From positions 9,671-73,670 of the IMG/VR virus record IMGVR_UViG_3300025451_000012: a stretch of 64,000 bases of DNA; one strand, 5' to 3'. The first letter of the stretch is position 1, and every line of letters starts with the position of its first letter. Made by a program: the position numbers and the translations under genes. The notes under the pieces are model-generated. The model was not told the origin of the DNA. It searched no databases and saw nothing but the letters and a program-made list of their open reading frames with translations. The DNA comes from a virus. This document shows, in pieces, positions 4,404 to 59,330 of this stretch.

Positions 4404-4626
4404 TGAAACTACGTCAGTCAAATGTGTTGACAACAACCAAACTGTAACTGCTGAGGTACTTGACTTTAAACCTAATGTGCTACTCAGCATCAGCCTTGAT
4501 CGGAGCATCAAATTGGTGTTGAAGTACAATGTTAAAAGTGACGAGTACCAGGGAGATTTGTATGGAAGAACTTTTATCAGCAAAGGTCCAAAAGGTAAAC
4601 ACTACACCACTGGTCGCCAAGGTTGA
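4390..4626 (+). CDS. hypothetical protein
   Basis: ORF track. Confidence 0.45.
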   Translation: MIRYDETTSVKCVDNNQTVTAEVLDFKPNVLLSISLDRSIKLVLKYNVKSDEYQGDLYGRTFISKGPKGKHYTTGRQG

Positions 4627-4651
4627 CAATAAATACTCATTGTGTTATACT
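4623..4651 (+). promoter_or_regulatory. sigma70-type early promoter (TTGACA-17-TATACT)
   Basis: read directly from sequence; member of the repeated early-promoter family. Confidence 0.6.
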
Positions 4652-4815
4652 ATGAGTTATGAAAAAGGTAATATCTTTCACTGTTGAACAGCCCAAACAT
4701 CGGGCACATAGGGTGCTTTTCTGCGAGAACACCCCGTTCAAACCTAAGGTTGTCCAATCCAAAGTGCAGTACCGTCGTAAGAATAAGCACTGCAATCGCC
4801 CTGAGACCTAAAAGG
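4652..4815 (+). ncRNA. candidate small non-coding RNA / leader region between two early promoters
   Basis: ~160 nt with no convincing ORF, immediately downstream of promoter 4623..4651; contains GGGTG...CACCC stem; speculative. Confidence 0.2.
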
Positions 4816-4844
4816 TTGACATTAAATGGTTTCCGTGATACAAT
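4816..4844 (+). promoter_or_regulatory. early promoter (TTGACA-17-TACAAT)
   Basis: sequence. Confidence 0.6.
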
Positions 4845-4873
4845 ACATGTATTGAAACGATAAGGAACTGGAA

Positions 4874-5020
4874 ATGAACTTCACGCTGATTACATCAAAT
4901 GGTAAAGTTCTCACATTTTTCGTCAAAGCCGTAGCTGAAACGTATCAGCAAGCATACGGTGGTGTTATCGTCACAAACACAATTCTCACACAAAAGGAAA
5001 TTCAAAATGTCTCTTAAACT
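4874..5020 (+). CDS. small ORF (48 aa) not in track; translationally coupled to next gene (TAA overlaps ATGTCTCTTAAA)
   Basis: RBS aaggaactggaaATG; own translation MNFTLITSNGKVLTFFVKAVAETYQQAYGGVIVTNTILTQKEIQNVS. Confidence 0.3.
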
Positions 5021-5249
5021 CAAAGCTCTACTCATTCTGGCTGGATTCATGGCTGGTACAGTCGCCGCAGCAGGCCTAGTACATTACATTGCACACAATG
5101 TCTCTGTGGAGACAATTCAAACTGCATTTTCAGTCGGTATAATGAGTGTACTATTGTACACCGTGTATGGATTAATCCTTTCTAAGTTGGAACATGATAA
5201 AAAAATTGACGAAATCTCTGCAAATATCAACAAAATTACTTCCAAATAA
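5007..5249 (+). CDS. hypothetical single-pass membrane protein (start refined from 4959)
   Basis: RBS aaaaggaaattcaaaATG; TM segment LKALLILAGFMAGTVAAAGLV. Confidence 0.5.
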   Translation: MSLKLKALLILAGFMAGTVAAAGLVHYIAHNVSVETIQTAFSVGIMSVLLYTVYGLILSKLEHDKKIDEISANINKITSK

Positions 5250-5497
5250 TGAGTAAGACTATTCCAGAAGATCACCGAGACCTTCTGGGTCGTACTGTGG
5301 CAGAGGGTGATGCAGTCGCATACACCCATCACAATAGCCTTTATGTGGGTAAGGTTATCAAAATCACACCCAAGCAAGTTCGTGTCGTTGATATGCTATC
5401 AAAATACCGTGATGATACTGGTTACCTAAAGTACACGTGTCAATGCGTACTGATCGGCGGCCCTGACCTAACAATGCACCTATTGAAGAACCTATAA
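5249..5497 (+). CDS. hypothetical protein
   Basis: ORF track; TAATG coupling. Confidence 0.5.
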   Translation: MSKTIPEDHRDLLGRTVAEGDAVAYTHHNSLYVGKVIKITPKQVRVVDMLSKYRDDTGYLKYTCQCVLIGGPDLTMHLLKNL

Positions 5498-5502
5498 AAA
5501 GG

Positions 5503-5531
5503 TTGACGGTAAATGGTTTCGGTGCTATAAT
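5503..5531 (+). promoter_or_regulatory. early promoter (TTGACG-17-TATAAT) with conserved leader
   Basis: sequence. Confidence 0.65.
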
Positions 5532-5563
5532 AGAATCTTAGACAGTAAAGAACAGGAACTAAA

Positions 5564-5851
5564 ATGCGTGAAAAACACAGTCCAACAATCAGTGCAGCAT
5601 ACATCAAGGACAAGAAGTGGTTCAAAAAGTATAGCGACTACGACAATCAACCGGTTGCTTGGTTTATCTATGACCCTGAAGGTTATGACCAGTGCGGCTA
5701 CGATGAGGACGAGATTGACCGCGCAGGCAATACAGAGTCTGCCTACTACTATCTAGCGGATGATGGCACTGAAGGTGATTGCAACGACTTCTATGAGGAG
5801 ATAGCAAATGAATGGACTTTTGATGGGGTGAAACCTGTTAAAAAAGGTTGA
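5564..5851 (+). CDS. hypothetical acidic protein
   Basis: ORF track; conserved leader/RBS cagtaaagaacaggaactaaaATG. Confidence 0.55.
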   Translation: MREKHSPTISAAYIKDKKWFKKYSDYDNQPVAWFIYDPEGYDQCGYDEDEIDRAGNTESAYYYLADDGTEGDCNDFYEEIANEWTFDGVKPVKKG

Positions 5852-5876
5852 CAATAAATCACTTTGGGTATATAAT
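5848..5876 (+). promoter_or_regulatory. early promoter (TTGACA-17-TATAAT)
   Basis: sequence. Confidence 0.65.
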
Positions 5877-5908
5877 AGAATCTTAAACAGTCGAAACAAG
5901 GAATCAAA

Positions 5909-6181
5909 ATGACTTTGCAAGAAATCAATCGTTCTATCATCGCAGGCACTTTCTCTAACGAAGACCTGAATTCAATCAATGATGCAATCAAATTTGCTCG
6001 TGGTCAAATCGCAACGAAAAACAAATTCACCCTAGTCAAGGGCTCACAAGTAAAATTCACTAGCTCACGCTCCGGTCAGACTGTGATTGGTTCAGTTGAA
6101 AAGGTGAATCGTAAATTCATTATCGTCAAGTCTGGTATGACCAACTGGCGTGTCCCTGCAAACATGTTGTCTGCTGCTTAA
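5909..6181 (+). CDS. hypothetical protein
   Basis: ORF track; conserved leader. Confidence 0.55.
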   Translation: MTLQEINRSIIAGTFSNEDLNSINDAIKFARGQIATKNKFTLVKGSQVKFTSSRSGQTVIGSVEKVNRKFIIVKSGMTNWRVPANMLSAA

Positions 6182-6596: not shown

Positions 6597-6734
6597 CTCA
6601 ATTTATTGTGCCTCATAGCCTGTGCCTACTTTGTAGCTATAGACAGAACTTGGAGTCTTGCATGGTGGATAAGCGGAATCGGAGTCATTTTCAACACCTT
6701 CGCAGTGCTTACCGTTCTAGCCTAAATTTGACAT
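6597..6734 (+). CDS. small hydrophobic peptide ORF (45 aa) not in track
   Basis: own translation MLILNLLCLIACAYFVAIDRTWSLAWWISGIGVIFNTFAVLTVLA; weak RBS. Confidence 0.25.
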
Positions 6735-6756
6735 TAAATGGATATTCTGCTATAAT
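6728..6756 (+). promoter_or_regulatory. early promoter (TTGACA-17-TATAAT); overlaps 3' end of preceding small ORF
   Basis: sequence. Confidence 0.6.
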
Positions 6757-6789
6757 ACATACATAGACAGTAAAGAACAGGACATTGAA

Positions 6790-7011
6790 ATGCGTACAGA
6801 ACTCGGACAAGTGGCTCAAAGCAAATTCAACAATAAGTGGAGTATTACCCTAGTAAGTTACAAGGGTATTCCCGGACAAGAATATGTCTGCTCTGAGGTT
6901 GAAAGTGCTGCGGTTTTTGCTACAGAAGACGAAGCATACGCAGGCGGAACTCGTGCCCTTGATATTCTTGAAGAAACCGGTGTCTTCCCTAACATGTGTG
7001 AAGCATTTTAA
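6790..7011 (+). CDS. hypothetical protein
   Basis: ORF track; conserved leader. Confidence 0.55.
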   Translation: MRTELGQVAQSKFNNKWSITLVSYKGIPGQEYVCSEVESAAVFATEDEAYAGGTRALDILEETGVFPNMCEAF

Positions 7012-7024
7012 AGGTTGACATTAA

Positions 7025-7053
7025 ATGGTTTCGGTGATATAATAGAATCTTAA
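7025..7053 (+). promoter_or_regulatory. early promoter (TTGACA-17-TATAAT), consensus copy
   Basis: sequence. Confidence 0.7.
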
Positions 7054-7076
7054 ACAGTAAAGAACAGGACTATCAA

Positions 7077-7487
7077 ATGGCTTACATGAATCAAGAACGC
7101 AAAGCAGAACGTGCCCCAGCTATCAAAGCAATTTTGAAAAAGTACAACGTCAAAGGTTCGCTTGCTGTGCGCAATCACATGACTTTGGTTTTGAACATCA
7201 AGAGTGGTTCTATTGATTTTATCGGCAACTTCAACGATACCGTTAGTGCTGATCCGTATCTCTCTGCACGAGGTTTCAATAAAGCGGAAAAGTCTCTGGA
7301 CGTGAATCCTTATCACTATCAAAATCATTTCAGCGGTGACGCTAAAGCATTCATGCAAGAAGTTTTTGCAGTTATGAATGGTGGCAATCACGACCGCAGC
7401 GACATTCAAACCGACTACTTTGACGTGGGCTGGTACGTTGACGTGAACGTTGGTCAATGGAACAAACCTTACACAGTTGGTGCATAA
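7077..7487 (+). CDS. hypothetical protein
   Basis: ORF track; conserved leader. Confidence 0.55.
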   Translation: MAYMNQERKAERAPAIKAILKKYNVKGSLAVRNHMTLVLNIKSGSIDFIGNFNDTVSADPYLSARGFNKAEKSLDVNPYHYQNHFSGDAKAFMQEVFAVMNGGNHDRSDIQTDYFDVGWYVDVNVGQWNKPYTVGA

Positions 7488-7642: not shown

Positions 7643-7671
7643 TTGACACAAAAAGTGTTTGGTGTTATAAT
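7643..7671 (+). promoter_or_regulatory. early promoter (TTGACA-17-TATAAT)
   Basis: sequence. Confidence 0.65.
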
Positions 7672-7701
7672 TAATTTTTAAACTTCCTTAAAGGAAATGA
7701 T

Positions 7702-7953
7702 ATGACAACTAATGATGAGTACTATGCAGGTATGATTGAAGGTGTACTTGATGGTTTTGCTTTGCGAAAAACGCAAGAAATTCCAAGAACTAATGTATCT
7801 GCCGGCGCCAAAGCCCTAATGAGTGTAGTTGAAGGGACAGAAAATCCCAAAACTATCCCTGGACCTAAAATGACAGCCATAATGGGAAGTTGGGGCACAC
7901 GTAACGATTATGTATTGGTTCCGGGAACGCACCCGAAACTTGTTCGCAACTAA
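7702..7953 (+). CDS. hypothetical protein
   Basis: ORF track; RBS aaaggaaatgatATG. Confidence 0.5.
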   Translation: MTTNDEYYAGMIEGVLDGFALRKTQEIPRTNVSAGAKALMSVVEGTENPKTIPGPKMTAIMGSWGTRNDYVLVPGTHPKLVRN

Positions 7954-7971: not shown

Positions 7972-8000
7972 TTGACAATAATGCCAAACTGTGTTATCAT
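7972..8000 (+). promoter_or_regulatory. early promoter (TTGACA-17-TATCAT)
   Basis: sequence. Confidence 0.55.
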
Positions 8001-8061
8001 TGTAACAGTGCTGATGATATCGGCACATTTTTAAACTTAGCTCTTATCTATAAGGAACACA

Positions 8062-8454
8062 ATGGCTAATCAATCTTTCAAAGTCGCTGGTATCACTACA
8101 CATGGTACTTCTACAAAAGTTCGCTTCACGGATGACCTCGTTCGTCGGGTGAAACAATTCTCTAAAGGTGGTGCATCACGCATTGACTTGATGGAGTTGC
8201 CTACTTCAATGACAAAACTTGAGGCACTTGCGTATCTGCAAGCACACGCTGATTTTCAATCCCCGTCCGATCAGGCTACGATCAATGATGCGATTGAGGA
8301 CCGTTCTAAGGAAGCAAACAAAGGTATCGTCAAGGTCAAAGTGACTAAGGCAAAAGCAAAGCCTAGCATTGATGCAATCAAGGCACGTGCTAAGAAAGAA
8401 TTGACCCCCGAACAAGTGCTTGCACAAGCATTGCACAACGTGGACCCAGCATAA
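8062..8454 (+). CDS. hypothetical Lys/Ala-rich protein
   Basis: ORF track; RBS taaggaacacaATG. Confidence 0.55.
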   Translation: MANQSFKVAGITTHGTSTKVRFTDDLVRRVKQFSKGGASRIDLMELPTSMTKLEALAYLQAHADFQSPSDQATINDAIEDRSKEANKGIVKVKVTKAKAKPSIDAIKARAKKELTPEQVLAQALHNVDPA

Positions 8455-20055: not shown

Positions 20056-20327
20056 GTTTTTGCTTCTGTATCAATAGAGTAGACTGCACCTTTGCTACCG
20101 GACACTTTGATAACTGTATCTTTTTCTTTGATCACCTTGAAGGGATTAACTTTGACAGCTACAAACTTGCGACCACGCTTGTCAATTGTGATCGGGTTTT
20201 TAAAGTAGAAAGGAACTGTATCACCTCGCTTGACGTATGCAACCATCTTGCTACCATCAAACAAGTAAGTATGATTGCCTAGAACACTTTTGTCTGACCA
20301 TTCAGTCGTTTCTACTACTGCTTCCAT
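19995..20327 (-). CDS. SWIM zinc-finger protein
   Basis: C-terminal CTCPGYMFRGACKHLVA = CxCx(n)CxH SWIM pattern. Confidence 0.5.
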   Translation of the reverse strand: MEAVVETTEWSDKSVLGNHTYLFDGSKMVAYVKRGDTVPFYFKNPITIDKRGRKFVAVKVNPFKVIKEKDTVIKVSGSKGAVYSIDTEAKTCTCPGYMFRGACKHLVAIA

Positions 20328-20560
20328 TATGCTTCAACTCCAAAATGTTCTCGAATCTGTTCATCAACAAATTCAGCATCACCATAAGTTGATATATTCA
20401 TCACATGGTGCTTGGCAATGTCAGCACATTCCTTAACAATCAACTCGGCGAACTTTTCTTTATCAAAATTTTGCCACTGCCAAAGTTTGTCCAGGGTAGA
20501 AAACTGCTTATCATCGAGCCATCCAGCCTGTTCAGCAAGTTCTCGGATTCGTTCGTTCAT
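20327..20560 (-). CDS. small-protein paralog family member A (start refined to MNERIRELAEQ)
   Basis: shares N-terminal MNERI(R/K)ELAEQAG, central KFAELIV(K/R)EC and C-terminal (R/K)EHFGVE with 26998..27222 and 44780..45007. Confidence 0.5.
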   Translation of the reverse strand: MNERIRELAEQAGWLDDKQFSTLDKLWQWQNFDKEKFAELIVKECADIAKHHVMNISTYGDAEFVDEQIREHFGVEA

Positions 20561-20757
20561 ACCTTTGCCACCTGTTCTGGAAATTTCAAACATTCATCTG
20601 CCGAATATGACCAACACTTATCGGTCAATTGGATCTTTACTTTCTTTGGGGTGAACCCAATGATGACGCCCATTGACAGTGAATCTGTATAACCATTTTG
20701 GGGTATTAATACAATATTATCACCCACTGTTAACAATTTGCCAGTTACATCGTTCAT
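20557..20757 (-). CDS. hypothetical protein
   Basis: ORF track; ATGA coupling. Confidence 0.45.
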   Translation of the reverse strand: MNDVTGKLLTVGDNIVLIPQNGYTDSLSMGVIIGFTPKKVKIQLTDKCWSYSADECLKFPEQVAKV

Positions 20758-20933: not shown

Positions 20934-21094
20934 TCTTCAACTCCATACTTAGCAAGTTCTTCAAAGGTGTCGATAGTGCCGTCTTCAATCAATGCAATGA
21001 GACAATCAAACTCGTCACGCTCACTGGAGTCATACACTTCGTCTTCCTTGAGATATGCAAGGGCTAGTAGCTGTTCCGTAATACTATTGTTCAT
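20930..21094 (-). CDS. small acidic ORF (54 aa) not in track
   Basis: own translation MNNSITEQLLALAYLKEDEVYDSSERDEFDCLIALIEDGTIDTFEELAKYGVEE; TAATG coupling. Confidence 0.3.
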   Translation of the reverse strand: MNNSITEQLLALAYLKEDEVYDSSERDEFDCLIALIEDGTIDTFEELAKYGVEE

Positions 21095-21519: not shown

Positions 21520-21549
21520 TTTGATTTCCTTTTGACTGTTTAAGATTCT

Positions 21550-21578
21550 ATTATATCACCAAAACCATTTAATGTCAA
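21550..21578 (-). promoter_or_regulatory. early promoter (TTGACA-17-TATAAT, - strand) with conserved leader
   Basis: plus strand ATTATA..TGTCAA. Confidence 0.7.
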
Positions 21579-21820: not shown

Positions 21821-21852
21821 TTTGAGTCCTTTTCTTTACTGTCTAAGATTCT

Positions 21853-22177: not shown

Positions 22178-22210
22178 TTTCGTGTCCTTTAATTAACTGT
22201 CTATGTATGT

Positions 22211-27222: not shown

Positions 27223-27223
27223 A

Positions 27224-44481: not shown

Positions 44482-44783
44482 AACCTCAATGTTTTCATAA
44501 TTTCTGGCCAGTCTTCTTTCTTACGTGGAGCAAACACAATGCCCACTTCGTCATTGTCAAGTCTGCTTTCGGTGATAACTTTGCAGTGTTCAACCTTCTT
44601 CAACTCGGCAAATTCTTCGTCGCTTACCTGACAGGTAACTTTCTTAAAACTGTCTTTAAGCCAATCTTGTGTTTCGGGCAAGTGTTGAAATTCTAACCAA
44701 CCAATCAAGCCGGCGTGTGCAGCAACATTAAGAGCGTGACCAGTTGGCACCCACTCTTTGATTGCGATATACATTTTCATCAT
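44475..44783 (-). CDS. hypothetical protein (weak resemblance to PTH2-type peptidyl-tRNA hydrolase)
   Basis: ORF track; weak motif resemblance only. Confidence 0.4.
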   Translation of the reverse strand: MMKMYIAIKEWVPTGHALNVAAHAGLIGWLEFQHLPETQDWLKDSFKKVTCQVSDEEFAELKKVEHCKVITESRLDNDEVGIVFAPRKKEDWPEIMKTLRLW

Positions 44784-45007
44784 TCAACTCCGAAATGTTT
44801 CTTCAATCGTTCTTGATAGATAACCTCGTCACCAAATTCTCTATCACTATCGTATGGGACCAATCTCAATGTCTCAATACATTCCCGAACAATCAACTCG
44901 GCGAACTTTTCCATACCTGCTGCACTAACCCATCGTCCACTCACATCAGTATATGCATTTGCTGTGTCGGCTAGTTCTTTAAATTTATTATTCATCCTGA
45001 GCTTCAT
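44780..45007 (-). CDS. small-protein paralog family member C
   Basis: EKFAELIVRECIETL ... KKHFGVE; shared 22-nt DNA core with members A and B. Confidence 0.5.
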   Translation of the reverse strand: MKLRMNNKFKELADTANAYTDVSGRWVSAAGMEKFAELIVRECIETLRLVPYDSDREFGDEVIYQERLKKHFGVE

Positions 45008-45770: not shown

Positions 45771-46568
45771 TTATTTAGGCATCATCAATGCATTGAAGTT
45801 ACTTGGAACAACAATAGTCTGGACCTTGCCGTTCTTGATGCCTTCGGAGATGTTCAACATAGCTTGTGCTTGCATGAATGCAATTGAACTGCCACTGTTA
45901 TTAGCCAATGCTGCCATACGACGGCTTTCAGCTTCGGCAGTCTTAACTTCAACTTCCTTTTGCTTCAATTCGTTCTTACTACGAACCAATGCATTGGCAC
46001 TTTCAACAACGGTGTCGCTAGGCACAACATTACGAATCATTACTTGGCTGATAGTGATTGCACCGTCCAGCTTTTCTTCAGCCATGTTACGCACGATCTC
46101 GTCCTGAATGAACTTTTCCATTTCATTGCGCTTGTCAGCCATGTCCAATGCTTCGTGCTTACGTGCTGCCTTGTAGATAGCATTACGAGCAGTTTGCACA
46201 ATGTAGTTGTACATCACGTAAGTATCACCTTTGAACTCTGCGTGGAAACTCTTGTTCTTAGTTGAATACAATTCTGACACCTGCGATGGATTGATGTTGT
46301 AAACAACCACAGCATCAAAGTCCTTCATTGTGGAGTTGTCAGCAGCCACAGGAGTCATATTCTCCAGGGTGACATTAACGTCCTTGATAGGGAATGTCAG
46401 TACATCACCGATAAAAGTTTGATTGAAAGATCCAGGCAATAGTTCACCACTTTGGACCTGTTTGTCAAAGCCGACACGCACGCCAACCTCGCCAGTTTCA
46501 ATACGAGTACAACCTGTTGCCAAAACAGCAGCAGCCAAAATAGAGAGAGTCAAAATACGTTTCATCAT
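45771..46568 (-). CDS. SPFH/band-7 (prohibitin/stomatin-like) lipoprotein
   Basis: lipobox LATGC; SPFH-like core plus C-terminal coiled coil. Confidence 0.55.
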   Translation of the reverse strand: MMKRILTLSILAAAVLATGCTRIETGEVGVRVGFDKQVQSGELLPGSFNQTFIGDVLTFPIKDVNVTLENMTPVAADNSTMKDFDAVVVYNINPSQVSELYSTKNKSFHAEFKGDTYVMYNYIVQTARNAIYKAARKHEALDMADKRNEMEKFIQDEIVRNMAEEKLDGAITISQVMIRNVVPSDTVVESANALVRSKNELKQKEVEVKTAEAESRRMAALANNSGSSIAFMQAQAMLNISEGIKNGKVQTIVVPSNFNALMMPK

Positions 46569-46574
46569 GTTTCC

Positions 46575-46751
46575 TTAAAATAAAATTACTAAACCAACTA
46601 ACACTATCAGTGATAGTATTGAACACATTATAGCATAGGTTATTGATTTTGTCAAGCCCCATACTTCTTTTCCTGACAATGTTCTGACCCAAGATATACC
46701 AAATCCAAATACAACTGTCAATATCACAAATGCTAAAAATACTTTAATCAT
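46575..46751 (-). CDS. small membrane protein ORF (58 aa) not in track; contains the SPFH-gene promoter
   Basis: own translation MIKVFLAFVILTVVFGFGISWVRTLSGKEVWGLTKSITYAIMCSILSLIVLVGLVILF; ATGA overlap with ligase stop. Confidence 0.3.
   Translation of the reverse strand: MIKVFLAFVILTVVFGFGISWVRTLSGKEVWGLTKSITYAIMCSILSLIVLVGLVILF
46627..46655 (-). promoter_or_regulatory. early promoter (TTGACA-17-TATAAT, - strand)
   Basis: perfect consensus hexamers. Confidence 0.65.
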
Positions 46752-48109
46752 CATACTACCTGTTGTTTGTCATCACGAAACCGAACAAATCGGGGGAATC
46801 GTAGAGAATACGTTCCATCTTGATTTTGTGTAATCACGTCACACATGACCTCAGCGGTGCGACCAATAACGATAGCAGAGTCAGTCCAATAACTATCTCT
46901 ATCACCATCACTAAACCCACTACCAACATTGACAGTGATTTCCTTTCCGTCGTCCACTCCGGAGCAGACCAGTGCTCCAAGTCGACCTTCATTGCGTCCA
47001 GTACCTTCTTCAACACCTACGACCTCCAAGTCTACAGTAATAGTGGGTTTCCACTTCATCCAGTCAGTTGACCGTTTGCACAAATATGGAGCATCCATGT
47101 TCTTAATCATAATACCTTCGAACCCTGCGTTCACGTTGTCTTTAGCATAACGCTCAAGTTGATCCTTACCTGCGGCAGTGTCGAGGTCAACCATGATGTG
47201 AGGAAGTAGTTCAACATTGTCCATTGTATCAATCACAGGACGAATTGCATCAAGTAGTGCAATACGCTTAGTCAACTGAGCATTCCAATGACCTCGACGG
47301 AAGTCTTCAAGCGGGATAATGTCAAAAATATTGAGTACTGAATCGTCGGCTTGTGCGTCAGTTTTGCGGCGTGCTTGGCGCATGAGTTCTTGGAATGTAT
47401 TACCGATCACTTCACCATCAAGTACGAAACCATTAATGAGGCTGCGACCTTGATCTACGTTTGTACATGCACGAACTAGCTTAGTCCAACTGTTGGCAAT
47501 CTGGTCTTCAATGTGAGTAAAGTTTTCAAACACTTTACCATTGCGACTGAAACAGATAATCGTCACATCACCGTCACTAGGGATAACAGTGAACAATGCA
47601 CGAACACCATCCAACTTAGGCTCAAGTCGTTTCATGCCCTTCATTTCAGGACGACCTTCACTGTTAGTTGCAAGCTGGCAACCAAAGATTGGGATTTCGT
47701 ATTCTGTCTTTTTACAGATTTTGTTGATAGTAGTTGACGAGATACCTGCACGAAGGTCCCGACGCAACACTGCGGCACAGAATGTATTCCATTCTTCACT
47801 GTCAAAGCGTTCTGCCATTTCTTGAATAGCATCACGTGCAGCGTGACCAGTCAATTGGCGCTGTGATAGCTGAACCAATAGTTCATTGAAGTCACTCCAG
47901 GGATTTTCTGAATCAATTAGACCGACTGTATCAGGAACTTTCTTAACACCAAATGTTACGTAGGGATTGTAACATGCCTTAGCGAGTCCCAGAAATGCTT
48001 GCGAGTTGATGCTGCCCAGAATAGCAGCTTCCAATGCTTGCCTTACTACATCTTCTTTGTGAAGGCGACTGTCTGATTCGTTAAGTTTGTTGATCCAAGA
48101 TGCTGACAT
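46751..48109 (-). CDS. ATP-dependent DNA ligase (T4 gp30-like)
   Basis: adenylation motif I KLDGVRAL; nucleotidyltransferase + OB domain length/collinearity. Confidence 0.85.
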   Translation of the reverse strand: MSASWINKLNESDSRLHKEDVVRQALEAAILGSINSQAFLGLAKACYNPYVTFGVKKVPDTVGLIDSENPWSDFNELLVQLSQRQLTGHAARDAIQEMAERFDSEEWNTFCAAVLRRDLRAGISSTTINKICKKTEYEIPIFGCQLATNSEGRPEMKGMKRLEPKLDGVRALFTVIPSDGDVTIICFSRNGKVFENFTHIEDQIANSWTKLVRACTNVDQGRSLINGFVLDGEVIGNTFQELMRQARRKTDAQADDSVLNIFDIIPLEDFRRGHWNAQLTKRIALLDAIRPVIDTMDNVELLPHIMVDLDTAAGKDQLERYAKDNVNAGFEGIMIKNMDAPYLCKRSTDWMKWKPTITVDLEVVGVEEGTGRNEGRLGALVCSGVDDGKEITVNVGSGFSDGDRDSYWTDSAIVIGRTAEVMCDVITQNQDGTYSLRFPRFVRFRDDKQQVV

Positions 48110-48139
48110 TTTTACTCCGTTGTCTGATTTAAGCTACAA

Positions 48140-48168
48140 GTATAACACAGGTATGATTTATTGTCAAG
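48140..48168 (-). promoter_or_regulatory. early promoter (TTGACA-17-TTATAC, - strand)
   Basis: sequence. Confidence 0.5.
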
Positions 48169-49306: not shown

Positions 49307-49513
49307 TTAAGCTACAAAGTCAAACACGTATTCTACCGGAGTCTTGGAGATTTTCACCTTACCGAGACCAGCGTCATACGACAATTTGTGAAACACTGAA
49401 CGGGCAGTTTTTTCAGAACATTCAACAAACAGTGAACCATATGAGAATTCAGCACGTTCGCCAGAGTCAAGCAAAGGAGCGATGTTGTTGATAACTTGTG
49501 TTTCGAATACCAT
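49307..49513 (-). CDS. hypothetical protein
   Basis: ORF track. Confidence 0.45.
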   Translation of the reverse strand: MVFETQVINNIAPLLDSGERAEFSYGSLFVECSEKTARSVFHKLSYDAGLGKVKISKTPVEYVFDFVA

Positions 49514-49545
49514 TTTATAGTCCTGTTCTTTACTGTTTAAGATTC

Positions 49546-49574
49546 TATTATATACCCAAAGCCATTTACCGTCA
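49546..49574 (-). promoter_or_regulatory. early promoter (TTGACG-17-TATAAT, - strand)
   Basis: sequence. Confidence 0.6.
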
Positions 49575-49730
49575 ACCTTTATTTCTGTGTGTGAATCAAC
49601 CCTGTTTTAGTGTAAGTGATAGTGCCACCAGTTGAGGACTTGATAGGCTTTGGAAGTTGCGGTTGAATAGTTTTGATCATTGTGTGTTTGTTGTTAGGGT
49701 TGAGGATAGTCGCGGAAAGTGTAGTGATCA

Positions 49731-49901
49731 ATAAATTTCCTTGAGAATTTGAAATTGTGCAGTAGGATACTTCTCCATGAATTCCTCTGACTTCACGAAT
49801 TCATTGTATGCCTTAGCGTCAAAGAACACCTTACGAAATACGCTCGACAGCGTACCAATTGGGGTGACTGTGAGATAGACCGATTTTGCTTTGCCTGCCA
49901 T
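49731..49901 (-). CDS. small ORF (57 aa) not in track
   Basis: own translation MAGKAKSVYLTVTPIGTLSSVFRKVFFDAKAYNEFVKSEEFMEKYPTAQFQILKEIY; directly downstream of promoter 49932..49960. Confidence 0.3.
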
Positions 49902-49931
49902 GATGTATTCCTTGTTACTGTTTAAGATTCT

Positions 49932-49960
49932 ATTATATCACCGAAACCATTTAATGTCAA
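49932..49960 (-). promoter_or_regulatory. early promoter (- strand)
   Basis: ATTATA-17-TGTCAA. Confidence 0.65.
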
Positions 49961-50187
49961 CCTACAACGACTACTCGTTGAAAGGATTCGTCAAACATAC
50001 CAGCACCCTGAACCACTGTGCGGAACTCTTTGTTGAACTTTTCGTTGGGCAATGCTTTGCCGTCAAACACTTGTTTGATTGTCACGCAAGTAATGAAGTC
50101 ACCTTCTACCTTAGTCACAGTACCAACCATGTAGCAGTTCAAGTTGCCGGGGAAGTCAAAAGACTTGATGATAGTTCCGATTTGCAT
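49957..50187 (-). CDS. hypothetical protein (start refined to MQIGTIIK)
   Basis: RBS AAGGAA upstream of ATG 50187. Confidence 0.45.
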   Translation of the reverse strand: MQIGTIIKSFDFPGNLNCYMVGTVTKVEGDFITCVTIKQVFDGKALPNEKFNKEFRTVVQGAGMFDESFQRVVVVG

Positions 50188-50218
50188 TTGTGTTCCTTGT
50201 TTTTCAGTGTATGTGTAC

Positions 50219-50247
50219 ATTATATACCCAAATCCATTTAATGTCAA
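50219..50247 (-). promoter_or_regulatory. early promoter (- strand); part of a ~65-bp tandemly duplicated promoter-RBS-start cassette
   Basis: sequence. Confidence 0.6.
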
Positions 50248-50456
50248 ATTTTGGATACTTGCATCATGATCAGGTTGCTGTGAGTTGCGCACAGACGAAC
50301 CGAGTAAGGACGACCAAATTTGTTGATAACTTCAATGTCAATCCAAGGAACAGTCTCATATTGAGCATTTTCGCTCAGAACCACATTCTTGATAGAACCA
50401 TTCAGCAAGCCTGCAGCAGAAAACCATTCTACTTTGTCGTTGATATTGAGTTTCAT
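50244..50456 (-). CDS. hypothetical protein (start refined to MKLNINDK)
   Basis: RBS AAGGAA upstream of ATG 50456. Confidence 0.45.
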   Translation of the reverse strand: MKLNINDKVEWFSAAGLLNGSIKNVVLSENAQYETVPWIDIEVINKFGRPYSVRLCATHSNLIMMQVSKI

Positions 50457-50487
50457 ATTAGTTCCTTGTTTTTCAGTGTATGTGTAC

Positions 50488-50516
50488 ATTATATACCCAA
50501 AACCATTTAATGTCAA
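50488..50516 (-). promoter_or_regulatory. early promoter (- strand); second copy of duplicated cassette
   Basis: sequence. Confidence 0.6.
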
Positions 50517-50764
50517 GTTTTGGTTTCCGTAAAATAATGCACTGGAATCAGAACACCGTTGACCGGAACTTCCGTACGCTTCTCTACACTGTAGAACTCC
50601 ATTGTCTTGTAGTGCTTCCAGAAGTCACCGCAGGCGAAGTAGGCTTTAGAACTACCACAGATTTCCACTGCAAAGAAAAACTGGTCGTCCCAGGGCTTCT
50701 TGGAGTTCTGGCGGATGCTCTTGTACTTACGGATGACTTCTGGATGTGCTGTATATTTAAACAT
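50513..50764 (-). CDS. hypothetical protein
   Basis: ORF track. Confidence 0.5.
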   Translation of the reverse strand: MFKYTAHPEVIRKYKSIRQNSKKPWDDQFFFAVEICGSSKAYFACGDFWKHYKTMEFYSVEKRTEVPVNGVLIPVHYFTETKT

Positions 50765-50770
50765 GAGTGT

Positions 50771-50799
50771 ATTATATACCCAAAACGATTTAACGTCAA
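50771..50799 (-). promoter_or_regulatory. early promoter (TTGACG-17-TATAAT, - strand)
   Basis: sequence. Confidence 0.6.
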
Positions 50800-50805
50800 C
50801 CGTAG

Positions 50806-50832
50806 GAAAGCCCCGATTAAGGGGCTTTTTGT
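50806..50832. terminator. intrinsic terminator AAGCCCC-GATTAA-GGGGCTTTTT
   Basis: 6-7 bp GC stem + T5; lies just downstream of 50834..51100. Confidence 0.6.
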
Positions 50833-50833: not shown

Positions 50834-51100
50834 TTACTTCTTAGTTGCTTGGTTCACGAAACCATACATCTTTTCAGCAGCTTCTAGAATCTTTTCCATT
50901 CCTGGAAACTCTGGCATTGCGATTGATGTAACGAGTTGCCCAGTCTTTTCATCTTTGGCAGCAGTCAGTTGCCAACCTGCAACCTTAACGTTATAGTCTT
51001 GCATGACGATGTCCTTAGCCATTGCTAGAACGTCAGCACGAATTTCATATCCGTTTTTGTTGAATTTAACTTCTGGAAGTTTTGGTGTAAAATCTGTCAT
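50834..51100 (-). CDS. hypothetical protein
   Basis: ORF track. Confidence 0.5.
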   Translation of the reverse strand: MTDFTPKLPEVKFNKNGYEIRADVLAMAKDIVMQDYNVKVAGWQLTAAKDEKTGQLVTSIAMPEFPGMEKILEAAEKMYGFVNQATKK

Positions 51101-51154
51101 GTCTATCTCCTGTGTGTGTTTATTTTATATCTATTTCAAGATATTGTCAAGCAT

Positions 51155-54852: not shown

Positions 54853-55067
54853 AGTTGAAACTTCTTAAGGTATGATTGTGCCAAAGAAGTATTCTCTACA
54901 CTGTAGTCAGGTACTTCAGGCTCAATATCATTATCTTCAAAGCCATACAATGAAGCATATTGTTCAATCATTGCATCAATCAATGTACCAAACTGTTCTT
55001 GATCAAGGATAGAGGCAATCTCACCTAGATTAATTCTAATATTTTTGTTCATGTTATTTACTTTCAA
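54849..55067 (-). CDS. hypothetical acidic protein
   Basis: ORF track. Confidence 0.45.
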   Translation of the reverse strand: MKVNNMNKNIRINLGEIASILDQEQFGTLIDAMIEQYASLYGFEDNDIEPEVPDYSVENTSLAQSYLKKFQL

Positions 55068-56061
55068 TTAAAGGACCGTTGTAAGTACTGTTGAGCCATT
55101 TTGAGTATGTTTCCGCTTGATCTGCAATCTTGGGTAAATCATACTTGCCCGCGAACTTCATTAAATGGATGCCAACTTGTGTTGTATTTCGGGGTTGCAA
55201 AGATTCCTTGATAGTTTTATCAAACGCATCTTTCAAATCTTGGGGCTGTGCTGTCAAATCGATAAGTGTGCGATTGCGTTCATATGCATCTTTGACACGA
55301 ACCTCATTGCCCTCATGATCGGACCAGCGTTGCAACATCAGATTGTTCCACGAAAATCCCATTTTGTGACGGTCTTCAAATGCCTCTTTGATACCAACTT
55401 TGTTTTTACTACCAACTTCACGCACTCCCGGAAAAGCACTGAAAATATTATCGCTTGAATCTCCCCTAATGCACTTGCGAAAAAGTAGATACTCAGGATC
55501 CTCAAGCAACTTGGGATTTTTTTCTTTGTCTAATACGGGCTTGCCCGACTCTTTAAAATATCCGGCCAGTGTTGCAAGCTCGCCGAGCACCCCATTATAT
55601 TGTTTAACTTTATCGGTGATCAACTGGTTGTAATCTGTATCGGTGCTGATGATAAAATGTTCGTCTTCGGGATGCAGTGCGAGGAATCGGGCAATCATAT
55701 CGTCAGCTTCTGCCTGAGGATGCCTGAGGACACTTACATTAGTACGGTCTTTGAGATACGTAGTGAATTTTTCATACGTGTCCCAAAAAAGTTTGCTTTC
55801 CTCAGCCTCAGCCTCAGTAACTGATTGTGCATCAACAATGCGATTCTTTTTATACGGAGCATACATGTCCTTGCGAAACGACCTGCCCTCTAAACAGAAT
55901 ACGACATGATCAATTCCATATTTGCGAACAGCTTGATTGACTGATGCGAATGTAATGTGCAAGGCTTGTGCAACTTTTTCTTCTGCGTCAGTGCCGCGCG
56001 CGGCCACGTGACGGGCACGAAAAAAAGTGTTGGCAGTATCGATGAGGGCATATGTAGTCAT
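55054..56061 (-). CDS. rnh: RNase H / 5'-3' exonuclease (flap endonuclease, T4 rnh-like)
   Basis: FEN/pol I 5'-nuclease pattern: YALIDTANTFFRARH, VFCLEGRSFRKDMYAPYKKNR, EADDMIARFLA, IISTDTDYNQL. Confidence 0.8.
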   Translation of the reverse strand: MTTYALIDTANTFFRARHVAARGTDAEEKVAQALHITFASVNQAVRKYGIDHVVFCLEGRSFRKDMYAPYKKNRIVDAQSVTEAEAEESKLFWDTYEKFTTYLKDRTNVSVLRHPQAEADDMIARFLALHPEDEHFIISTDTDYNQLITDKVKQYNGVLGELATLAGYFKESGKPVLDKEKNPKLLEDPEYLLFRKCIRGDSSDNIFSAFPGVREVGSKNKVGIKEAFEDRHKMGFSWNNLMLQRWSDHEGNEVRVKDAYERNRTLIDLTAQPQDLKDAFDKTIKESLQPRNTTQVGIHLMKFAGKYDLPKIADQAETYSKWLNSTYNGPLIESK

Positions 56062-56067
56062 GTGTCT

Positions 56068-56096
56068 ATTATAGTCGTATATTTAAAAAATGTCAA
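56068..56096 (-). promoter_or_regulatory. early promoter (- strand) upstream of rnh
   Basis: ATTATA-17-TGTCAA. Confidence 0.6.
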
Positions 56097-56097: not shown

Positions 56098-56541
56098 TTA
56101 AATTTGTTCCAAATACTTGTCAGGATCATCGTTGATGCCCGAAAAGATATTAGTTGGGCTGAATGGGAGAAATTCTTTTTTCACTCTATAAATTTCAGGG
56201 TAGCTAACTTTAGCTCTTGTCTCTACAATATCTACTATACGTTCTCCGTCAATTTTAGATTCATCATGGAACCATTCTAATCTTTTCTCAAACAAGACCA
56301 ATAGTTGATCGCCGTACTCATTTTTGAGATAGTCTTCAAGTGCAGAAATTTCACTTGCCCTGCCGTAATAAAGATAATCAAATGTTTGAGTTTTGTTAAT
56401 ACTAGGGAGTATGTAATTTTTTACCAAATAGTTTTTGATGTTAGCATTTTTGATGTGCTTACCGAACCCCCATAAATCTGACTGATGATGATGCAATACA
56501 TACAACCAGCCGCACTTGTTAGGAAGAACTATATTAGGCAT
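56098..56541 (-). CDS. T5orf172/GIY-YIG-like domain protein
   Basis: N-terminal GWLYVLHHHQSDLWGFGKH resembles T5orf172 GYVYVL..KIG motif; tentative. Confidence 0.4.
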   Translation of the reverse strand: MPNIVLPNKCGWLYVLHHHQSDLWGFGKHIKNANIKNYLVKNYILPSINKTQTFDYLYYGRASEISALEDYLKNEYGDQLLVLFEKRLEWFHDESKIDGERIVDIVETRAKVSYPEIYRVKKEFLPFSPTNIFSGINDDPDKYLEQI

Positions 56542-57727
56542 TTTTTACTGCGTCAATAACATCAACTGCGTCCAAATAATTGTAAAGGTCATACCCATTG
56601 TAGTTAAAATCATTCGCATCGTTGGTCAGTGGATGAGATCCATGCAAGTTTTGATAAATTTTCAAAACAATAGCCAAAGCACAATTAGTTGAATTAAGTT
56701 TGTGATTTTTGATGTTAGGATATGCGTCAGTATGCCATGCAACGTGTGCTGCTTCTGTTTCTTTACGCAAGGTAGACAAATCAGTGAAACACTTTTTAAT
56801 GATAGCGTGAAAGTTATCCAAAAACTCACTCCATTGAGGACCGGTCATTGGGATATGTTTGGCTTTCATATTATCATACAAGTGACCATACAAGCCGTAC
56901 GCAGCACTATCAAATTTTGTGCCATGCCAGTATTTTTTGTGCGTACCCATAATAAAGTCAAGTGTCTTTAATTTCCAATTGTATATCGGGTCAACCCGAT
57001 CCAATGTACCTGCTTTGCCGCGTTGCGAATGATTTGCTTGGACAGGGATTGCTTCGTGCTTTTCGCAAATAGCTTGACGCTTTTCAGCATCCACATAAGT
57101 TTTATCTGTGGAATTATGTTGACGAACACCTACAACTTTGATTCGGTGAAAATCAAAGCCGGTCCATTTCTTTTGACCTTTACCATTTCGGTGATAGGCA
57201 GCTTCGTTGGCAAATGCTGTATCTGTGTTGTTAACAATAAAGAACGGGAATTCAAAGTCTTCCCATTTGGTCGGGTCTACCCCGTCCCACAAGCCATGCT
57301 TTGCAAATAATCCAACTACGTTAATGCCGTGTTGAGTATCAAATGAGGGATTAGTTTTACCGTCTGCGCTGACAGTAGCAAATACAGGGCTCAGTAACTC
57401 TTCCTGACAACCATTCATAATATCAGCTACGTGCTTTGCAATTACGAGTCGTTGGGTTTCTTCCAAGAAAGTTGCTCGTCCAATCTTTTGATTTTTGAAT
57501 ACGCCGATTTTGGCTGGATTAAACGTTTTGCCACGCTTTTTCAAATCTGCTAATACGTTAGCAACGAGAGGATTCTTTTCAAGCTCCGCTACTGATTGTG
57601 CTAATGTTTTAGGCTTTGCTGACTTCAACCGTTTACTATCAAGTGGATTTTTGATTTTTGAGATATCAACTAGCTGACCTTTTGGTACATCGGTCCAGGG
57701 AAATATGAATGCTATTTTAGTTGCCAT
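56534..57727 (-). CDS. conserved hypothetical protein (397 aa), possible nucleic-acid-modifying enzyme
   Basis: ORF track; own early promoter. Confidence 0.55.
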   Translation of the reverse strand: MATKIAFIFPWTDVPKGQLVDISKIKNPLDSKRLKSAKPKTLAQSVAELEKNPLVANVLADLKKRGKTFNPAKIGVFKNQKIGRATFLEETQRLVIAKHVADIMNGCQEELLSPVFATVSADGKTNPSFDTQHGINVVGLFAKHGLWDGVDPTKWEDFEFPFFIVNNTDTAFANEAAYHRNGKGQKKWTGFDFHRIKVVGVRQHNSTDKTYVDAEKRQAICEKHEAIPVQANHSQRGKAGTLDRVDPIYNWKLKTLDFIMGTHKKYWHGTKFDSAAYGLYGHLYDNMKAKHIPMTGPQWSEFLDNFHAIIKKCFTDLSTLRKETEAAHVAWHTDAYPNIKNHKLNSTNCALAIVLKIYQNLHGSHPLTNDANDFNYNGYDLYNYLDAVDVIDAVKNA

Positions 57728-57759
57728 TTTATGAATCCAGTTGCTTGTAAGAAGTCTCT

Positions 57760-57788
57760 ATTATAGCACCAAATTCATTAAATGTCAA
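57760..57788 (-). promoter_or_regulatory. early promoter (- strand)
   Basis: ATTATA-17-TGTCAA. Confidence 0.6.
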
Positions 57789-57795
57789 CCTTTTA

Positions 57796-58284
57796 TCAAC
57801 TTACTTCGGTTCTACCGTCGCCTAAGTCTTTAGTATTCATTTTTCGCAAGTCTCGGGCGTCTCGGTTCTCCGGATCCGCTTGGGCCTGCTCATAGACTTC
57901 TAAAGCTACGTTGCGGCATACGCTCTGAAACCATCGGTCAATGATGTCCGATTCTTTGTCGTTCTCTTTCATCTGGTAACCAACACGACTGAGATTCAAA
58001 ATGAACTTCTCATTCCAGTCTAGTTCGAAGGAACCTGCATTGATATTGTCTGGATCGACTTCCATGCTGAGAATATTGACATAGGGTTCACCTGCTAATG
58101 TAGCTTTTTCTTTAGCAGTAAGTTCCTTCTCAACCTTTTCAACCTTCTTTTCTTTGGGCTTGCGAGGTTTCTTCACCTTTACGGGCGCAGGCTCTGCAAC
58201 AGCAACGACAATGGGTTCGACTACTGGATCAGGCTTTTTAGAGAATAGGGTTTTTAGTTTGTTTAGCATTATTGTATGTATCAT
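57796..58284 (-). CDS. hypothetical protein with Pro/Val/Lys-rich basic N-terminal region
   Basis: ORF track. Confidence 0.5.
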   Translation of the reverse strand: MIHTIMLNKLKTLFSKKPDPVVEPIVVAVAEPAPVKVKKPRKPKEKKVEKVEKELTAKEKATLAGEPYVNILSMEVDPDNINAGSFELDWNEKFILNLSRVGYQMKENDKESDIIDRWFQSVCRNVALEVYEQAQADPENRDARDLRKMNTKDLGDGRTEVS

Positions 58285-59272
58285 AAAGTTTGAAGCTGGC
58301 TAAGTTTTTAGCTTTGCTTTCGCACATCATGTCAAAATTTTCATAGAAAGTCAGTGCCCAATCGTTCACTGCGTCATTCCAGTAATAGTCACTGTGTGCC
58401 CGTAGTTTTTGTTTATTGTGTCCTGCTGCAATCAGCGCGCCATGATCGGGTAGTTGTGCAACGGAATGACCTGTGAGTACATCTTCGCGGCTAACACTGT
58501 AATGGCAAGTAGGGCGAACGCCACGCCAAGAATCAATAACCCGTTGTACAATCGCATCATTAGGTTGAACGTATTCTCCCTCACGAATCCAATTATGGTG
58601 AATGTCCATGACCGTAGGGACGAGGTCAGATAACGATAAGCAGTCAAGTAGTCCATGTGTGTATTCTTCATTCTCTAGTGTAAGTGTGTTGCGGGCTTCG
58701 GGTGACAAACGATTGTATACATCACGAATGCCCTGCGGACCTTTACGACCACTGATGTGTACATTAACTTTGAAGTCTTGAAATGTCTTGCCATAGCCCA
58801 TCCAACGAACCATGTCAGTATGATATTCAAATTCTCTGATACTGTTATTTACTACTTCTTCACGGTCGCTTGCTAAAACTACAAACTGGTCAGGGTGAAA
58901 CGAAAGACGAACATCATTGGCTCGTGCAGTCTCACCGATGGGCGCAAACCAATGTGCTAGCTTGTTTTGAATGTCAGTGTCTTGCCAGAAACCTTGCCAG
59001 TCGGGATGTGTGTAGAATGAAAGCATGTCACTAGTAAGACGAACCATGCGTAGTTCGGGTCGCAGTGAGGCGACACGCTTGACCAGATTGTGAGTATGCA
59101 GGATGTTGCGTTTTGCAACTTCAATGATTTTTTCTTCTGCTACTGACTTACTTTGACGCTTTGCCCAGGCAAGAGTTGTGCCACCTGTGTTTAGTTCGGG
59201 TATACTAGATACCTCACCCTTGCTATTGATTTCAGAAAATTTGCAGGCAAAGCCGATACGTTTAATAGTCAT
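58238..59272 (-). CDS. uvdE: UV damage endonuclease (UvdE/UVDE family, TIM-barrel)
   Basis: RIGFACKF, LENEEYT, RAHSDYY segments parallel Bacillus UvsE (RLGYVCI, LENDDKT, RSHADYV). Confidence 0.75.
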   Translation of the reverse strand: MTIKRIGFACKFSEINSKGEVSSIPELNTGGTTLAWAKRQSKSVAEEKIIEVAKRNILHTHNLVKRVASLRPELRMVRLTSDMLSFYTHPDWQGFWQDTDIQNKLAHWFAPIGETARANDVRLSFHPDQFVVLASDREEVVNNSIREFEYHTDMVRWMGYGKTFQDFKVNVHISGRKGPQGIRDVYNRLSPEARNTLTLENEEYTHGLLDCLSLSDLVPTVMDIHHNWIREGEYVQPNDAIVQRVIDSWRGVRPTCHYSVSREDVLTGHSVAQLPDHGALIAAGHNKQKLRAHSDYYWNDAVNDWALTFYENFDMMCESKAKNLASFKLYDTYNNAKQTKNPIL

Positions 59273-59301
59273 AAGTCATCCATAAATATTGAGTAGAACG
59301 T

Positions 59302-59330
59302 ATCATAACACAAAGATGTTTAATTGTCAA
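59302..59330 (-). promoter_or_regulatory. early promoter (TTGACA-17-TATGAT, - strand) inside 3' end of epimerase gene, upstream of uvdE
   Basis: sequence. Confidence 0.5.

Follow-up and report, generated by a model that had tools for sequence, protein, structure and literature searches.

Near-identical promoter cassettes as probable early promoters and recombination linkers in an uncultured phage clade

Introduction

A stretch of 64,000 nucleotides (nt) from an uncultured virus (IMG/VR record IMGVR_UViG_3300025451_000012, positions 9,671 to 73,670; hereafter the window) carries a promoter-like element, TTGACA-N17-TATAAT, that recurs in front of many of its genes. Analysis of these copies and of their counterparts in related metagenomic contigs indicates that they are probably early promoters that double as recombination linkers, working like the promoter-early stem-loop (PeSL) cassettes of phages RB49 and phi1, with most copies lacking the stem-loop. 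In the proposed mechanism, the sites would be read by the host RNA polymerase with its primary sigma factor, most likely as the early class of the phage. About half of them would represent one standard cassette, which extends from an A-rich stretch ending in GG to the ATG, and each cassette would supply its own start of transcription and of translation to the small gene behind it. The units would usually follow one another without a terminator, the stop codon of the preceding gene often being the TGA inside TTGACA; since terminators are missing and the stop lies in the -35 hexamer, this would give gene-promoter-gene-promoter strings without spare DNA. Because a unit of 30-60 nt is near-identical at many sites of the genome and across relatives, it would also act as a homology patch for recombination. 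Exchange at this homology could delete, insert, swap or move promoter-plus-gene modules, and the copies within one genome would evolve in concert. The anatomy, orientation and conservation of the cassette, as well as the breakpoints and the insertions or deletions (indels) found at it, were read directly from the sequences.

Promoter copies in the window

The window contains 16 exact copies of TTGACA-N17-TATAAT, whereas 0.03 would be expected from dinucleotide-preserving shuffles. When at most one mismatch per hexamer was allowed, 31 convincing copies were found between positions 4623 and 59330; the + strand carries eight of them (4.6-8.0 kb) and the - strand the other 23 (21.5-59.3 kb). An earlier note on this DNA had counted at least 29 copies with a spacing of 17 nt in nearly all of them; both claims hold, given that the spacer measures 17 nt in 31/31 copies, and matches with 16 or 18 nt are mostly weak. 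A weight matrix was built from the 31 copies, as the earlier note had proposed, and 30 sites outscored every shuffle, all 30 of them co-oriented with the local genes. The same copies were recovered by an independent repeat finder as direct-repeat families of 60-76 nt, and in a general promoter scan all 11/12 and 12/12 matches fell on the coding strand of two stretches of 14-16 kb, with one exception that has an 18 nt spacer. The promoters sit just 5' of start codons and face as the local genes do; 19/31 copies carry the TGn of an extended -10. The near-consensus hexamers, the frequent TGn, the co-orientation and a fixed distance to the ATG are all consistent with the strong host-sigma70 promoters that had been proposed, and we infer promoter activity and early timing.

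Nevertheless, the 31 copies are not uniform. Only 16-18 of them represent the true repeated cassette with a conserved spacer (family copies), whereas the remainder, approx. 13, have only the hexamers in common and a TAAAT motif that follows the -35, and are ordinary sigma-70-type promoters (generic promoters). Beyond the 31, weaker candidates are found at 2420 (+), 11933 (-, with a 16 nt spacer), 42728 (-) and 63117 (-). The T4 late promoter motif TATAAATA is not enriched in the window (2 found, 3.5 expected).

Anatomy of the cassette

In the 5' to 3' direction, the consensus of the cassette consists of aAAGG, TTGACA, the spacer TTAAATGGnTTyGGkkA, TATAAT, a leader, AGGA, approx. 7 nt, and ATG. 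The region upstream of the -35 is A-rich at positions -41 to -38, with A at 56-65% at positions -40 and -39, and G reaches 62% at -37 and 44% at -36. The spacer ends, at -17 to -13, in one of two flavours, GGTGA, which makes an extended -10 (TGn), or GGGTA, which does not. The family leader is approx. 33 nt long, A-rich and without structure, and it is conserved at positions -6, -4, -1, +1 to +3, +6 to +9 and +11 to +12. In the window it occurs in three types, AGAATCTTA[A/G]ACAGT..., ACATACATAGACAGT... and GTACACATACACTGAAAAACAAGGAAC, and the four combinations of spacer flavour with leader type are all present. The earlier note had described one conserved leader in many copies; its first 15 nt, AGAATCTTA[A/G]ACAGT, are indeed present in nine copies, but the full 26 nt leader (at most 3 mismatches) in only five. 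The two further types have two copies each, and unrelated leaders are present at 13 promoters. In approx. 85% of 346 unique family copies, collected from the window and from related contigs, a distance of 29-34 nt separates the -10 from the ATG (mode 33), and a GGA-containing ribosome-binding site (RBS) motif is centred approx. 8-10 nt 5' of the ATG.

It had also been suggested that the leader is a shared post-transcriptional element. Of this proposal the shared RBS context stands. The structured version of it, in which the leader would be a riboswitch, an attenuator or a processing hairpin, could draw on the hairpins in the longer leaders of a few generic promoters (7972, 25837); however, the folding energies of the family leaders are 0 to -3 kcal/mol and their z-scores against shuffles are positive (that is, they are less structured than these), no match to any Rfam family was found anywhere in the window, and a common helix is impossible for the three leader types. 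On folding and Rfam, the structured element was rejected; we regard it as barely credible. Since the leaders are unstructured and match no Rfam family, the leader reads as an open ribosome-loading region.

The upstream boundary of the cassette is equally compact. Among the 307 copies that have an upstream open reading frame (ORF), the stop codon of this ORF is the TGA inside TTGACA in 177, and it lies 4-8 nt 5' of the -35 hexamer in another 67. In the window, the ORFs that stop in a -35 TGA end at 5851, 21575, 21878, 22236, 22510, 48164, 49957, 50244 and 50513. Hairpins or terminators are at or near only about 6/31 copies (23107, 29018, 24305, 33480, 50799 and 51150), and terminator-like sites in the window are at chance level overall. 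One terminator hairpin, AAAGAGTACTTCGGTACTCTTTTTTT, is found on the - strand at both approx. 23110-23140 and 29025-29055, before two different promoters (23107 and 29018), which indicates that this terminator is itself a repeated unit. Most cassettes hold stops in all three frames before the ATG: the -35 contains a TGA, and TCTTAA and CAGTTAA contain a TAA each; of these, real upstream ORFs make frequent use of the TGA only. The idea that the CTTAA and CAGTTAA motifs serve as suppliers of stop codons for the other two frames was not adopted, given that real upstream ORFs use them in 25/346 copies and that AT-rich leaders often hold chance stops.

Relatives and conservation

No near DNA match to the window was found among cultured phages, and a 73 nt cassette query gave only chance-level matches there (E of 0.2 or higher). 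The DNA ligase of the window shares no more than 36% identity with the ligase of any cultured phage, and proteins of the window are also encoded on four metagenomic contigs, the longest of 359,393 nt. The probable source of the window is an uncultured jumbo phage. The label "T4-like" rests solely on rIIA, rIIB, rnh (FEN type), nadV and natV, and there are no core structural or replication genes in this window. Mimicry of host promoters, or an origin as a bacterial repeat element, was considered as a source of the repeats and is unsupported: the core has no exact match in the genomes of 185,579 bacterial and archaeal species.

An exact 29 nt core of the cassette is present in more than 115 IMG/VR contigs, which is a lower bound, and it was used as bait to fetch loci L001-L115. 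Relatives of the ligase are encoded on 218 contigs, 80 of which were retrieved, all at least 80% identical; a bait-independent set of 76 loci was fetched through ligase homology only. In these 76 loci there are 204 unique promoters, 200 of them co-oriented with the ligase gene. Between relatives and the window, coding DNA is approx. 70% identical and proteins 40-85%. At orthologous positions the 29 nt core has an identity of 0.89-0.98 and the first 15 nt of the leader 0.77-0.87, whereas third codon positions at orthologous loci are at 0.57-0.72, and the 40 nt upstream of the cassette at 0.24-0.42, about the level of unrelated sequence. By these comparisons the cassette is conserved across a large uncultured phage clade, and more strongly than the genes it serves.

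Cassettes as junctions of gene shuffling

The genes on either side of a cassette change partners frequently. For four cassette-driven genes, the orthologues stand behind many unrelated upstream neighbours, and for one upstream gene there are three alternative downstream neighbours, depending on the contig. When the proteins were clustered, 36/45 downstream clusters had at least two upstream partners, and 39/60 upstream clusters had at least two downstream partners. The position of the change is sharply defined: in 1013 pairs of loci with the same downstream and a different upstream gene, similarity collapses within approx. 6 nt of the -35 start, and in 420 pairs with the same upstream and a different downstream gene similarity is lost in the interval from the -10 to the ATG. 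Genes adjacent in the window are still neighbours in 13/248 cases (5%) across 14 promoter junctions, versus 301/916 (33%) across 49 other junctions (Mann-Whitney p=0.004).

Individual rearrangements point in the same direction. Contig IMGVR_UViG_3300013285_000038 (loci L117 and L011) lacks exactly 50799-50517 of the window, 283 nt that comprise one cassette and one ORF of 83 codons, begin at the first T of one -35 and end one base short of the next -35. At this indel, the identity of L117 to the window jumps from approx. 77% to 97-100%, in a tract of approx. 650 nt that spans three cassettes. A second indel in L117, in which 49575-49092 (484 nt) is absent, starts exactly at the -35 of the 49575 copy. 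In another contig, from the same metagenome (L039), modules from 1, 5, 28, 30 and 49 kb of the window are neighbours, and the unit of promoter plus HD hydrolase gene is placed before rIIA, not after rIIB as in the window.

The copies within a genome also resemble each other. The AGAATCTTA.ACAGT leaders of the window differ by 2.5-7.5 nt from the orthologous cassettes, which in other contigs mostly read AGAGTCTTAATCAGT in the leader, versus 0.2-0.8 nt from their paralogues in the window. Likewise, leaders from one locus resemble each other more closely than leaders from different loci (50 loci, permutation test p<0.0005), although the effect is small. This likeness is in line with frequent exchange among the copies; co-evolution with a genome-specific factor could produce it as well.

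The simplest alternative is that these sites are promoters only, with an extended identity maintained by selection for promoter strength and for the start of translation, and with the promoter-plus-gene unit selected as such, without a role in recombination. Early promoters of T4-type phages do carry a consensus beyond the hexamers (the "uber" promoters, PMC2988021) and precede novel ORFs (PMC1524935), and breaks of gene order at promoters would equally follow from modules selected as units. Several other points weigh against a recombination role, or against the account given here in general. A first control on all ORF junctions gave no difference between promoter and non-promoter junctions, and thus no excess of partner changes at promoters; the ORF calls were noisy, and since this control was swamped by wrong-strand stop-to-stop ORFs, the window-anchored adjacency test given above was used instead. 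Some recombination boundaries lie away from cassettes, such as the right-hand, far end of the near-identical L117 tract, which is inside an ORF, and the second L117 indel is flanked by a cassette on one side only. The conservation of the exact core is inflated by the core-baited fetching of L001-L115, and in the ligase-fetched set only 68/204 promoters (33%) belong to the spacer family, with a bimodal distribution and spacers that typically carry 2-4 substitutions. In addition, the phage is uncultured, promoter activity and timing are read from sequence, and polymerase contacts as known from E. coli do not explain the conserved spacer sequence.

On the other hand, a reading as promoters only does not account well for the 283 nt indel, bounded by two cassette copies from -35 start to -35 start, for the sharp clustering of breakpoints at the cassette edges, for leaders homogenised within a genome relative to orthologous cassettes, or for an adjacency approx. 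six times less conserved across promoter junctions; moreover, recombination between such cassettes has been shown experimentally in RB49/phi1 (PMC2839356). This reading is thus considered rather unlikely, and we infer that the seams were caused by recombination in the cassette rather than by selection on modules alone.

Another possibility is that the spacer or the CTTA..CAGT motif of the leader is the site of a dedicated factor that binds or cuts, for instance a phage repressor or shut-off protein, a translational repressor or RNase similar to RegA/RegB, or a site-specific recombinase as in an integron-like system. Such a factor could explain that the spacer (-29 to -13) and the leader from -6 to +12 are conserved beyond the known needs of sigma-70 contacts, and that the leader flavour is genome-specific, as expected under co-evolution with a trans-acting factor. 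However, no candidate factor was identified, 13/31 promoters of the window and a third of those of the clade lack the motif and yet precede comparable genes, and the crossover positions are spread over the cassette instead of being concentrated at one point. Furthermore, homology-driven recombination of T4-type phages needs less than 50 bp (PMC2839356), hence a dedicated enzyme is not required. A dedicated factor was therefore judged very improbable. A broader proposal, also improbable in our estimation, would make the spacer and leader the recognition site of a dedicated recombination helper or of a global early-gene regulator, and the arrays an integron-like system of gene exchange common to a large clade of uncultured and probably jumbo phages, together with a second, leaderless early mode at about one in eight promoters.

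Predicted leaderless promoters

A subset of the promoters shows a different relation to the start codon. Among 634 unique promoters from loci L001-L191 and the window, 65 have the ATG of an ORF of 50 codons or more exactly 6 nt downstream of the -10, and 10 have it at 7 nt, whereas offsets of 1-5 and 8-20 nt are nearly empty. These 75 candidates (approx. 12% of the promoters) belong to 19 protein clusters. Since the ATG coincides exactly with the predicted start of transcription, leaderless mRNAs are predicted for them. The rnh orthologues share this distance to the ATG and differ in the 6 nt discriminator and in the N-terminus, and the start codon of the FG-GAP lipoprotein is fixed by its signal peptide.

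In the window there are four candidates. On the + strand, the generic promoter at 4623-4661 (TTGACA/TATACT, TGn) has its ATG 7 nt after the -10 (ORF 4659-4811), an offset that is kept in its orthologues. The other three, on the - strand, have the ATG 6 nt after the -10: a family-like promoter (TTGACT) at 33443-33480, which precedes the FG-GAP lipoprotein gene (32300-33445) and has a terminator-like hairpin upstream of it at 33512-33539; a cassette-family promoter (TTGACG) with the hairpin AAAAAGCCCCTTAATCGGGGCTTT at 50762-50830, which precedes ORF 50513-50764 and forms the left-hand repeat of the 283 nt indel; and a generic promoter at 56059-56096, before the rnh/FEN gene (55054-56061). If real, the leaderless class would be an unusual mode of translation for the early genes of a phage with such promoters.

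Individual sites and neighbouring genes

The cassettes form arrays at 4.8-7.1, 21.5-22.5 and 49.5-50.8 kb, before small genes that mostly lack a known family. In a PHROG scan no family was found for 14/20 proteins, 17 of the 20 being shorter than 150 amino acids and most of them encoded by small ORFs behind cassettes. The ORFs behind the cassettes are mutually unrelated, with one paralogue pair in the whole window, located outside the arrays; tandem gene duplication as the source of the repeats was rejected because the downstream ORFs are not paralogous. The genes that the earlier note had placed behind the promoters (nadV, natV, the HD hydrolase, rIIA, FG-GAP, SPFH, ligase, rnh and uvdE) were all confirmed.

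The first array lies on the + strand. It begins with a cassette-family promoter with four mismatches in the spacer, a -10 of TACAAT and a leader, at 4816-4876, before ORF 4874-5017. Two further family copies follow, one at 5503-5566 with leader AGAATCTTAGACAGTAAAGAACAGGA, before ORF 5564-5851 (95 amino acids, no PHROG family), and one at 5848-5911 with a AGAATCTTAAACAGT leader, before ORF 5909-6181, in whose -35 TGA ORF 5564-5851 stops. A borderline family copy with seven spacer mismatches and a leader of type ACATACATAGACAGT (6728-6792) precedes ORF 6790-7011, and a family copy with the exact 26 nt leader (7015-7079) precedes ORF 7077-7487 (phrog_10415, unknown function). Downstream of the array there are two generic promoters on the same strand, at 7643-7704 with its own leader, before ORF 7702-7953, and at 7972-8064 (TATCAT), whose leader of 61 nt includes a hairpin, before ORF 8062-8454.

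All the remaining sites are on the - strand. The second array includes four cassette-family copies: 21517-21578 (AGAATCTTAAACAGT), before ORF 21094-21519, where ORF 21575-21820 stops at the -35 TGA; 21818-21881, with the consensus spacer, before ORF 21575-21820; 22175-22239, with a leader of type ACATACATAGACAGT, before ORF 21878-22177; and 22452-22513 (TTGACG), before ORF 22236-22454. An upstream ORF also stops in the -35 of the second and third of these copies, and the orthologues of ORF 22236-22454 have unrelated upstream neighbours in 15 unique loci. The family-like promoter at 23044-23107, before the endolysin-like ORF 22510-23046, has the terminator hairpin AAAGAGTACTTCGGTACTCTTTTTTTT directly 5' of it and reads as a true terminator-plus-promoter layout of the PeSL type.

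Three generic promoters follow. At 24241-24315 the -35 lies in the loop of a hairpin (AATGAGGGCC-TTGACA-AGCCCTCATT), before an AAA ATPase gene (23152-24243); at 25750-25837 (TATACT, TGn) a 56 nt leader with a hairpin precedes nadV (24319-25752); and at 28247-28342 a 64 nt leader precedes the NMNAT+Nudix gene, "natV" (27224-28249). The promoter of the HD phosphohydrolase gene (28516-28959), at 28957-29018, has the same terminator hairpin 5' of it as the one at 23107. A near-consensus promoter at 30375-30403 is located inside the 3' part of rIIA, approx. 270-300 nt upstream of rIIB (29063-30103), and recalls the rIIB promoters inside rIIA of T4 (PMC2988021), while rIIA itself (30081-32237) is preceded by a cassette-family copy with a near-exact 26 nt leader (32235-32299).

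Further along, generic promoters precede the SPFH gene 45771-46568 (46566-46655, with a 58 nt leader) and the DNA ligase gene 46751-48109 (48107-48167; TATACT, TGn), the latter with an upstream ORF that stops in its -35. The small ORFs upstream of the ligase agree with genes called independently on further contigs of this phage. The third array begins with a family copy with the exact 26 nt leader at 49511-49575, before ORF 49307-49513, which is the left edge of the 484 nt indel. It continues with a family copy at 49899-49960, before ORF 49728-49901, in whose -35 the upstream ORF stops, and with two family copies of leader type GTACACATACACTGAAAAACAAGGAAC, at 50185-50247, before ORF 49957-50187, and at 50454-50516, before ORF 50244-50456, the latter forming the right-hand repeat of the 283 nt indel. 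The generic promoter at 51098-51150 (TAAAAT), before ORF 50834-51100, has a place conserved in relatives. Finally, a borderline family copy with six spacer mismatches (57725-57788) precedes ORF 56534-57727, and a generic promoter (TATGAT, TGn) at 59270-59330 precedes uvdE (58238-59272).

Other genes of the window deserve mention. A full-length Hsp70/DnaK gene (Pfam E=8e-255) adjoins the gene of a ClpX-like AAA+ protein with a ClpX zinc finger, on the - strand at 37845-39746 and 39841-41049. A paralogous small gene family has three copies, at 20421-20561, 27095-27223 and 44874-44911 (repeat families D6 and D8), within ORFs 20327-20593, 26998-27327 and 44780-45007, with homologues in 23-32 related loci. 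QueE-like and QueD-like genes at 61744-63071 (-), with QueD behind the weaker promoter at 63117, suggest a 7-deazaguanine modification of DNA or tRNA. No tRNA genes were found in the window.

Comparison with known systems

The closest known counterpart of the cassettes are the PeSLs, the mobile regulatory cassettes described in the pairs RB49/phi1, T4/PST and KVP40/nt-1 (Arbiol et al. 2010, PMC2839356; Comeau et al. 2014, PMC4122927). A PeSL is a conserved unit of approx. 100 bp that comprises an A/T-rich stretch in which the upstream gene stops, followed by a stem-loop and sigma-70 promoter, an RBS and the ATG; in RB49 the promoter is TTGACA-N17-TATAAT. PeSLs occupy the variable parts of the genomes, mark indels, and recombine to give mini-circles (PMC2839356, PMC4122927). 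For a direct comparison, the RB49 array upstream of the ligase gene was extracted (L192, RB49 114.5-123.3 kb; ORFs 185-211 before gene 30). Its consensus is aaaaAGTTG TTGACA ggggatc..gatcccc TATAAT ACAC(C/A)CATACCGAAACGAA..AGGAGAATCAAAATG, with the same layout of promoter, conserved leader of approx. 33 nt, RBS and ATG, and like the densest array of the window (48-51 kb) it is located directly upstream of a DNA ligase gene.

The window shares with the PeSLs the hexamers with their 17 nt spacer, the upstream A-rich stretch with the stop of the preceding gene, the conserved leader of approx. 30 nt, and the RBS and ATG at a fixed distance. The dense arrays in variable regions, before small novel genes without known relatives, are shared too, as are the insertions, deletions, replacements and displaced genes between relatives, with indels that end at cassettes. 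There are also clear differences. The RB49 spacer is palindromic (GGGGATC..GATCCCC), whereas that of the window is fixed and non-palindromic; a hairpin is nearby in only about 6/31 copies, so that the stem-loop is not a general part of the unit; the preceding stop is usually the TGA inside the -35, which makes the window's variant more compact; and the window has a sharply defined, predicted leaderless subclass. The spacer and leader sequences of RB49 are unrelated to those of the window, except for a ACACATAC-like start in one leader type, in which the RB49 leader start (ACACACATAC...) resembles that of the window (GTACACATAC...). As all the sequence-level features of a PeSL except the stem-loop are present, the cassettes are described here as a PeSL-like, stem-loop-less variant and not as strict members of the group.

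With T4-type early promoters in general, the window shares promoters of the host sigma-70 type with a consensus beyond the hexamers (PMC2988021; PMC1524935), a G that precedes the -35, which RB49, RB43 and Aeh1 also have in their GTTGAC type, an A-rich region near -40, a GT-rich one just 5' of the -10, frequent TGn, and novel ORFs behind the promoters. In contrast, the -35 of the window is a full TTGACA instead of the GTTTAC of T4, and the spacer and the first 15 nt of the leader are conserved as a block across its clade. Integron cassettes and phage morons are also small genes that bring or receive a promoter and are gained or lost as units at defined junctions; however, no integrase or attC-like folded site was seen, the junction here is the promoter itself, one per gene, with homology as the simplest explanation of recombination, and morons carry no conserved flanking linker.

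From these comparisons, the picture of mobile regulatory cassettes, so far based on a few pairs of cultured T4-type phages, would be extended to a large uncultured clade with apparently very big genomes, for which metagenomic sampling is deep enough to provide hundreds of junctions. These cassettes also show that the stem-loop is dispensable for the gene-shuffling behaviour. The 29 nt core is a practical handle by which these phages can be found and the limits of their accessory early genes drawn; these genes are likely to serve host takeover and anti-defence. In relation to the PeSLs of cultured phages, the window and its relatives are a clear and unusually well-sampled example of a design that had already been described.

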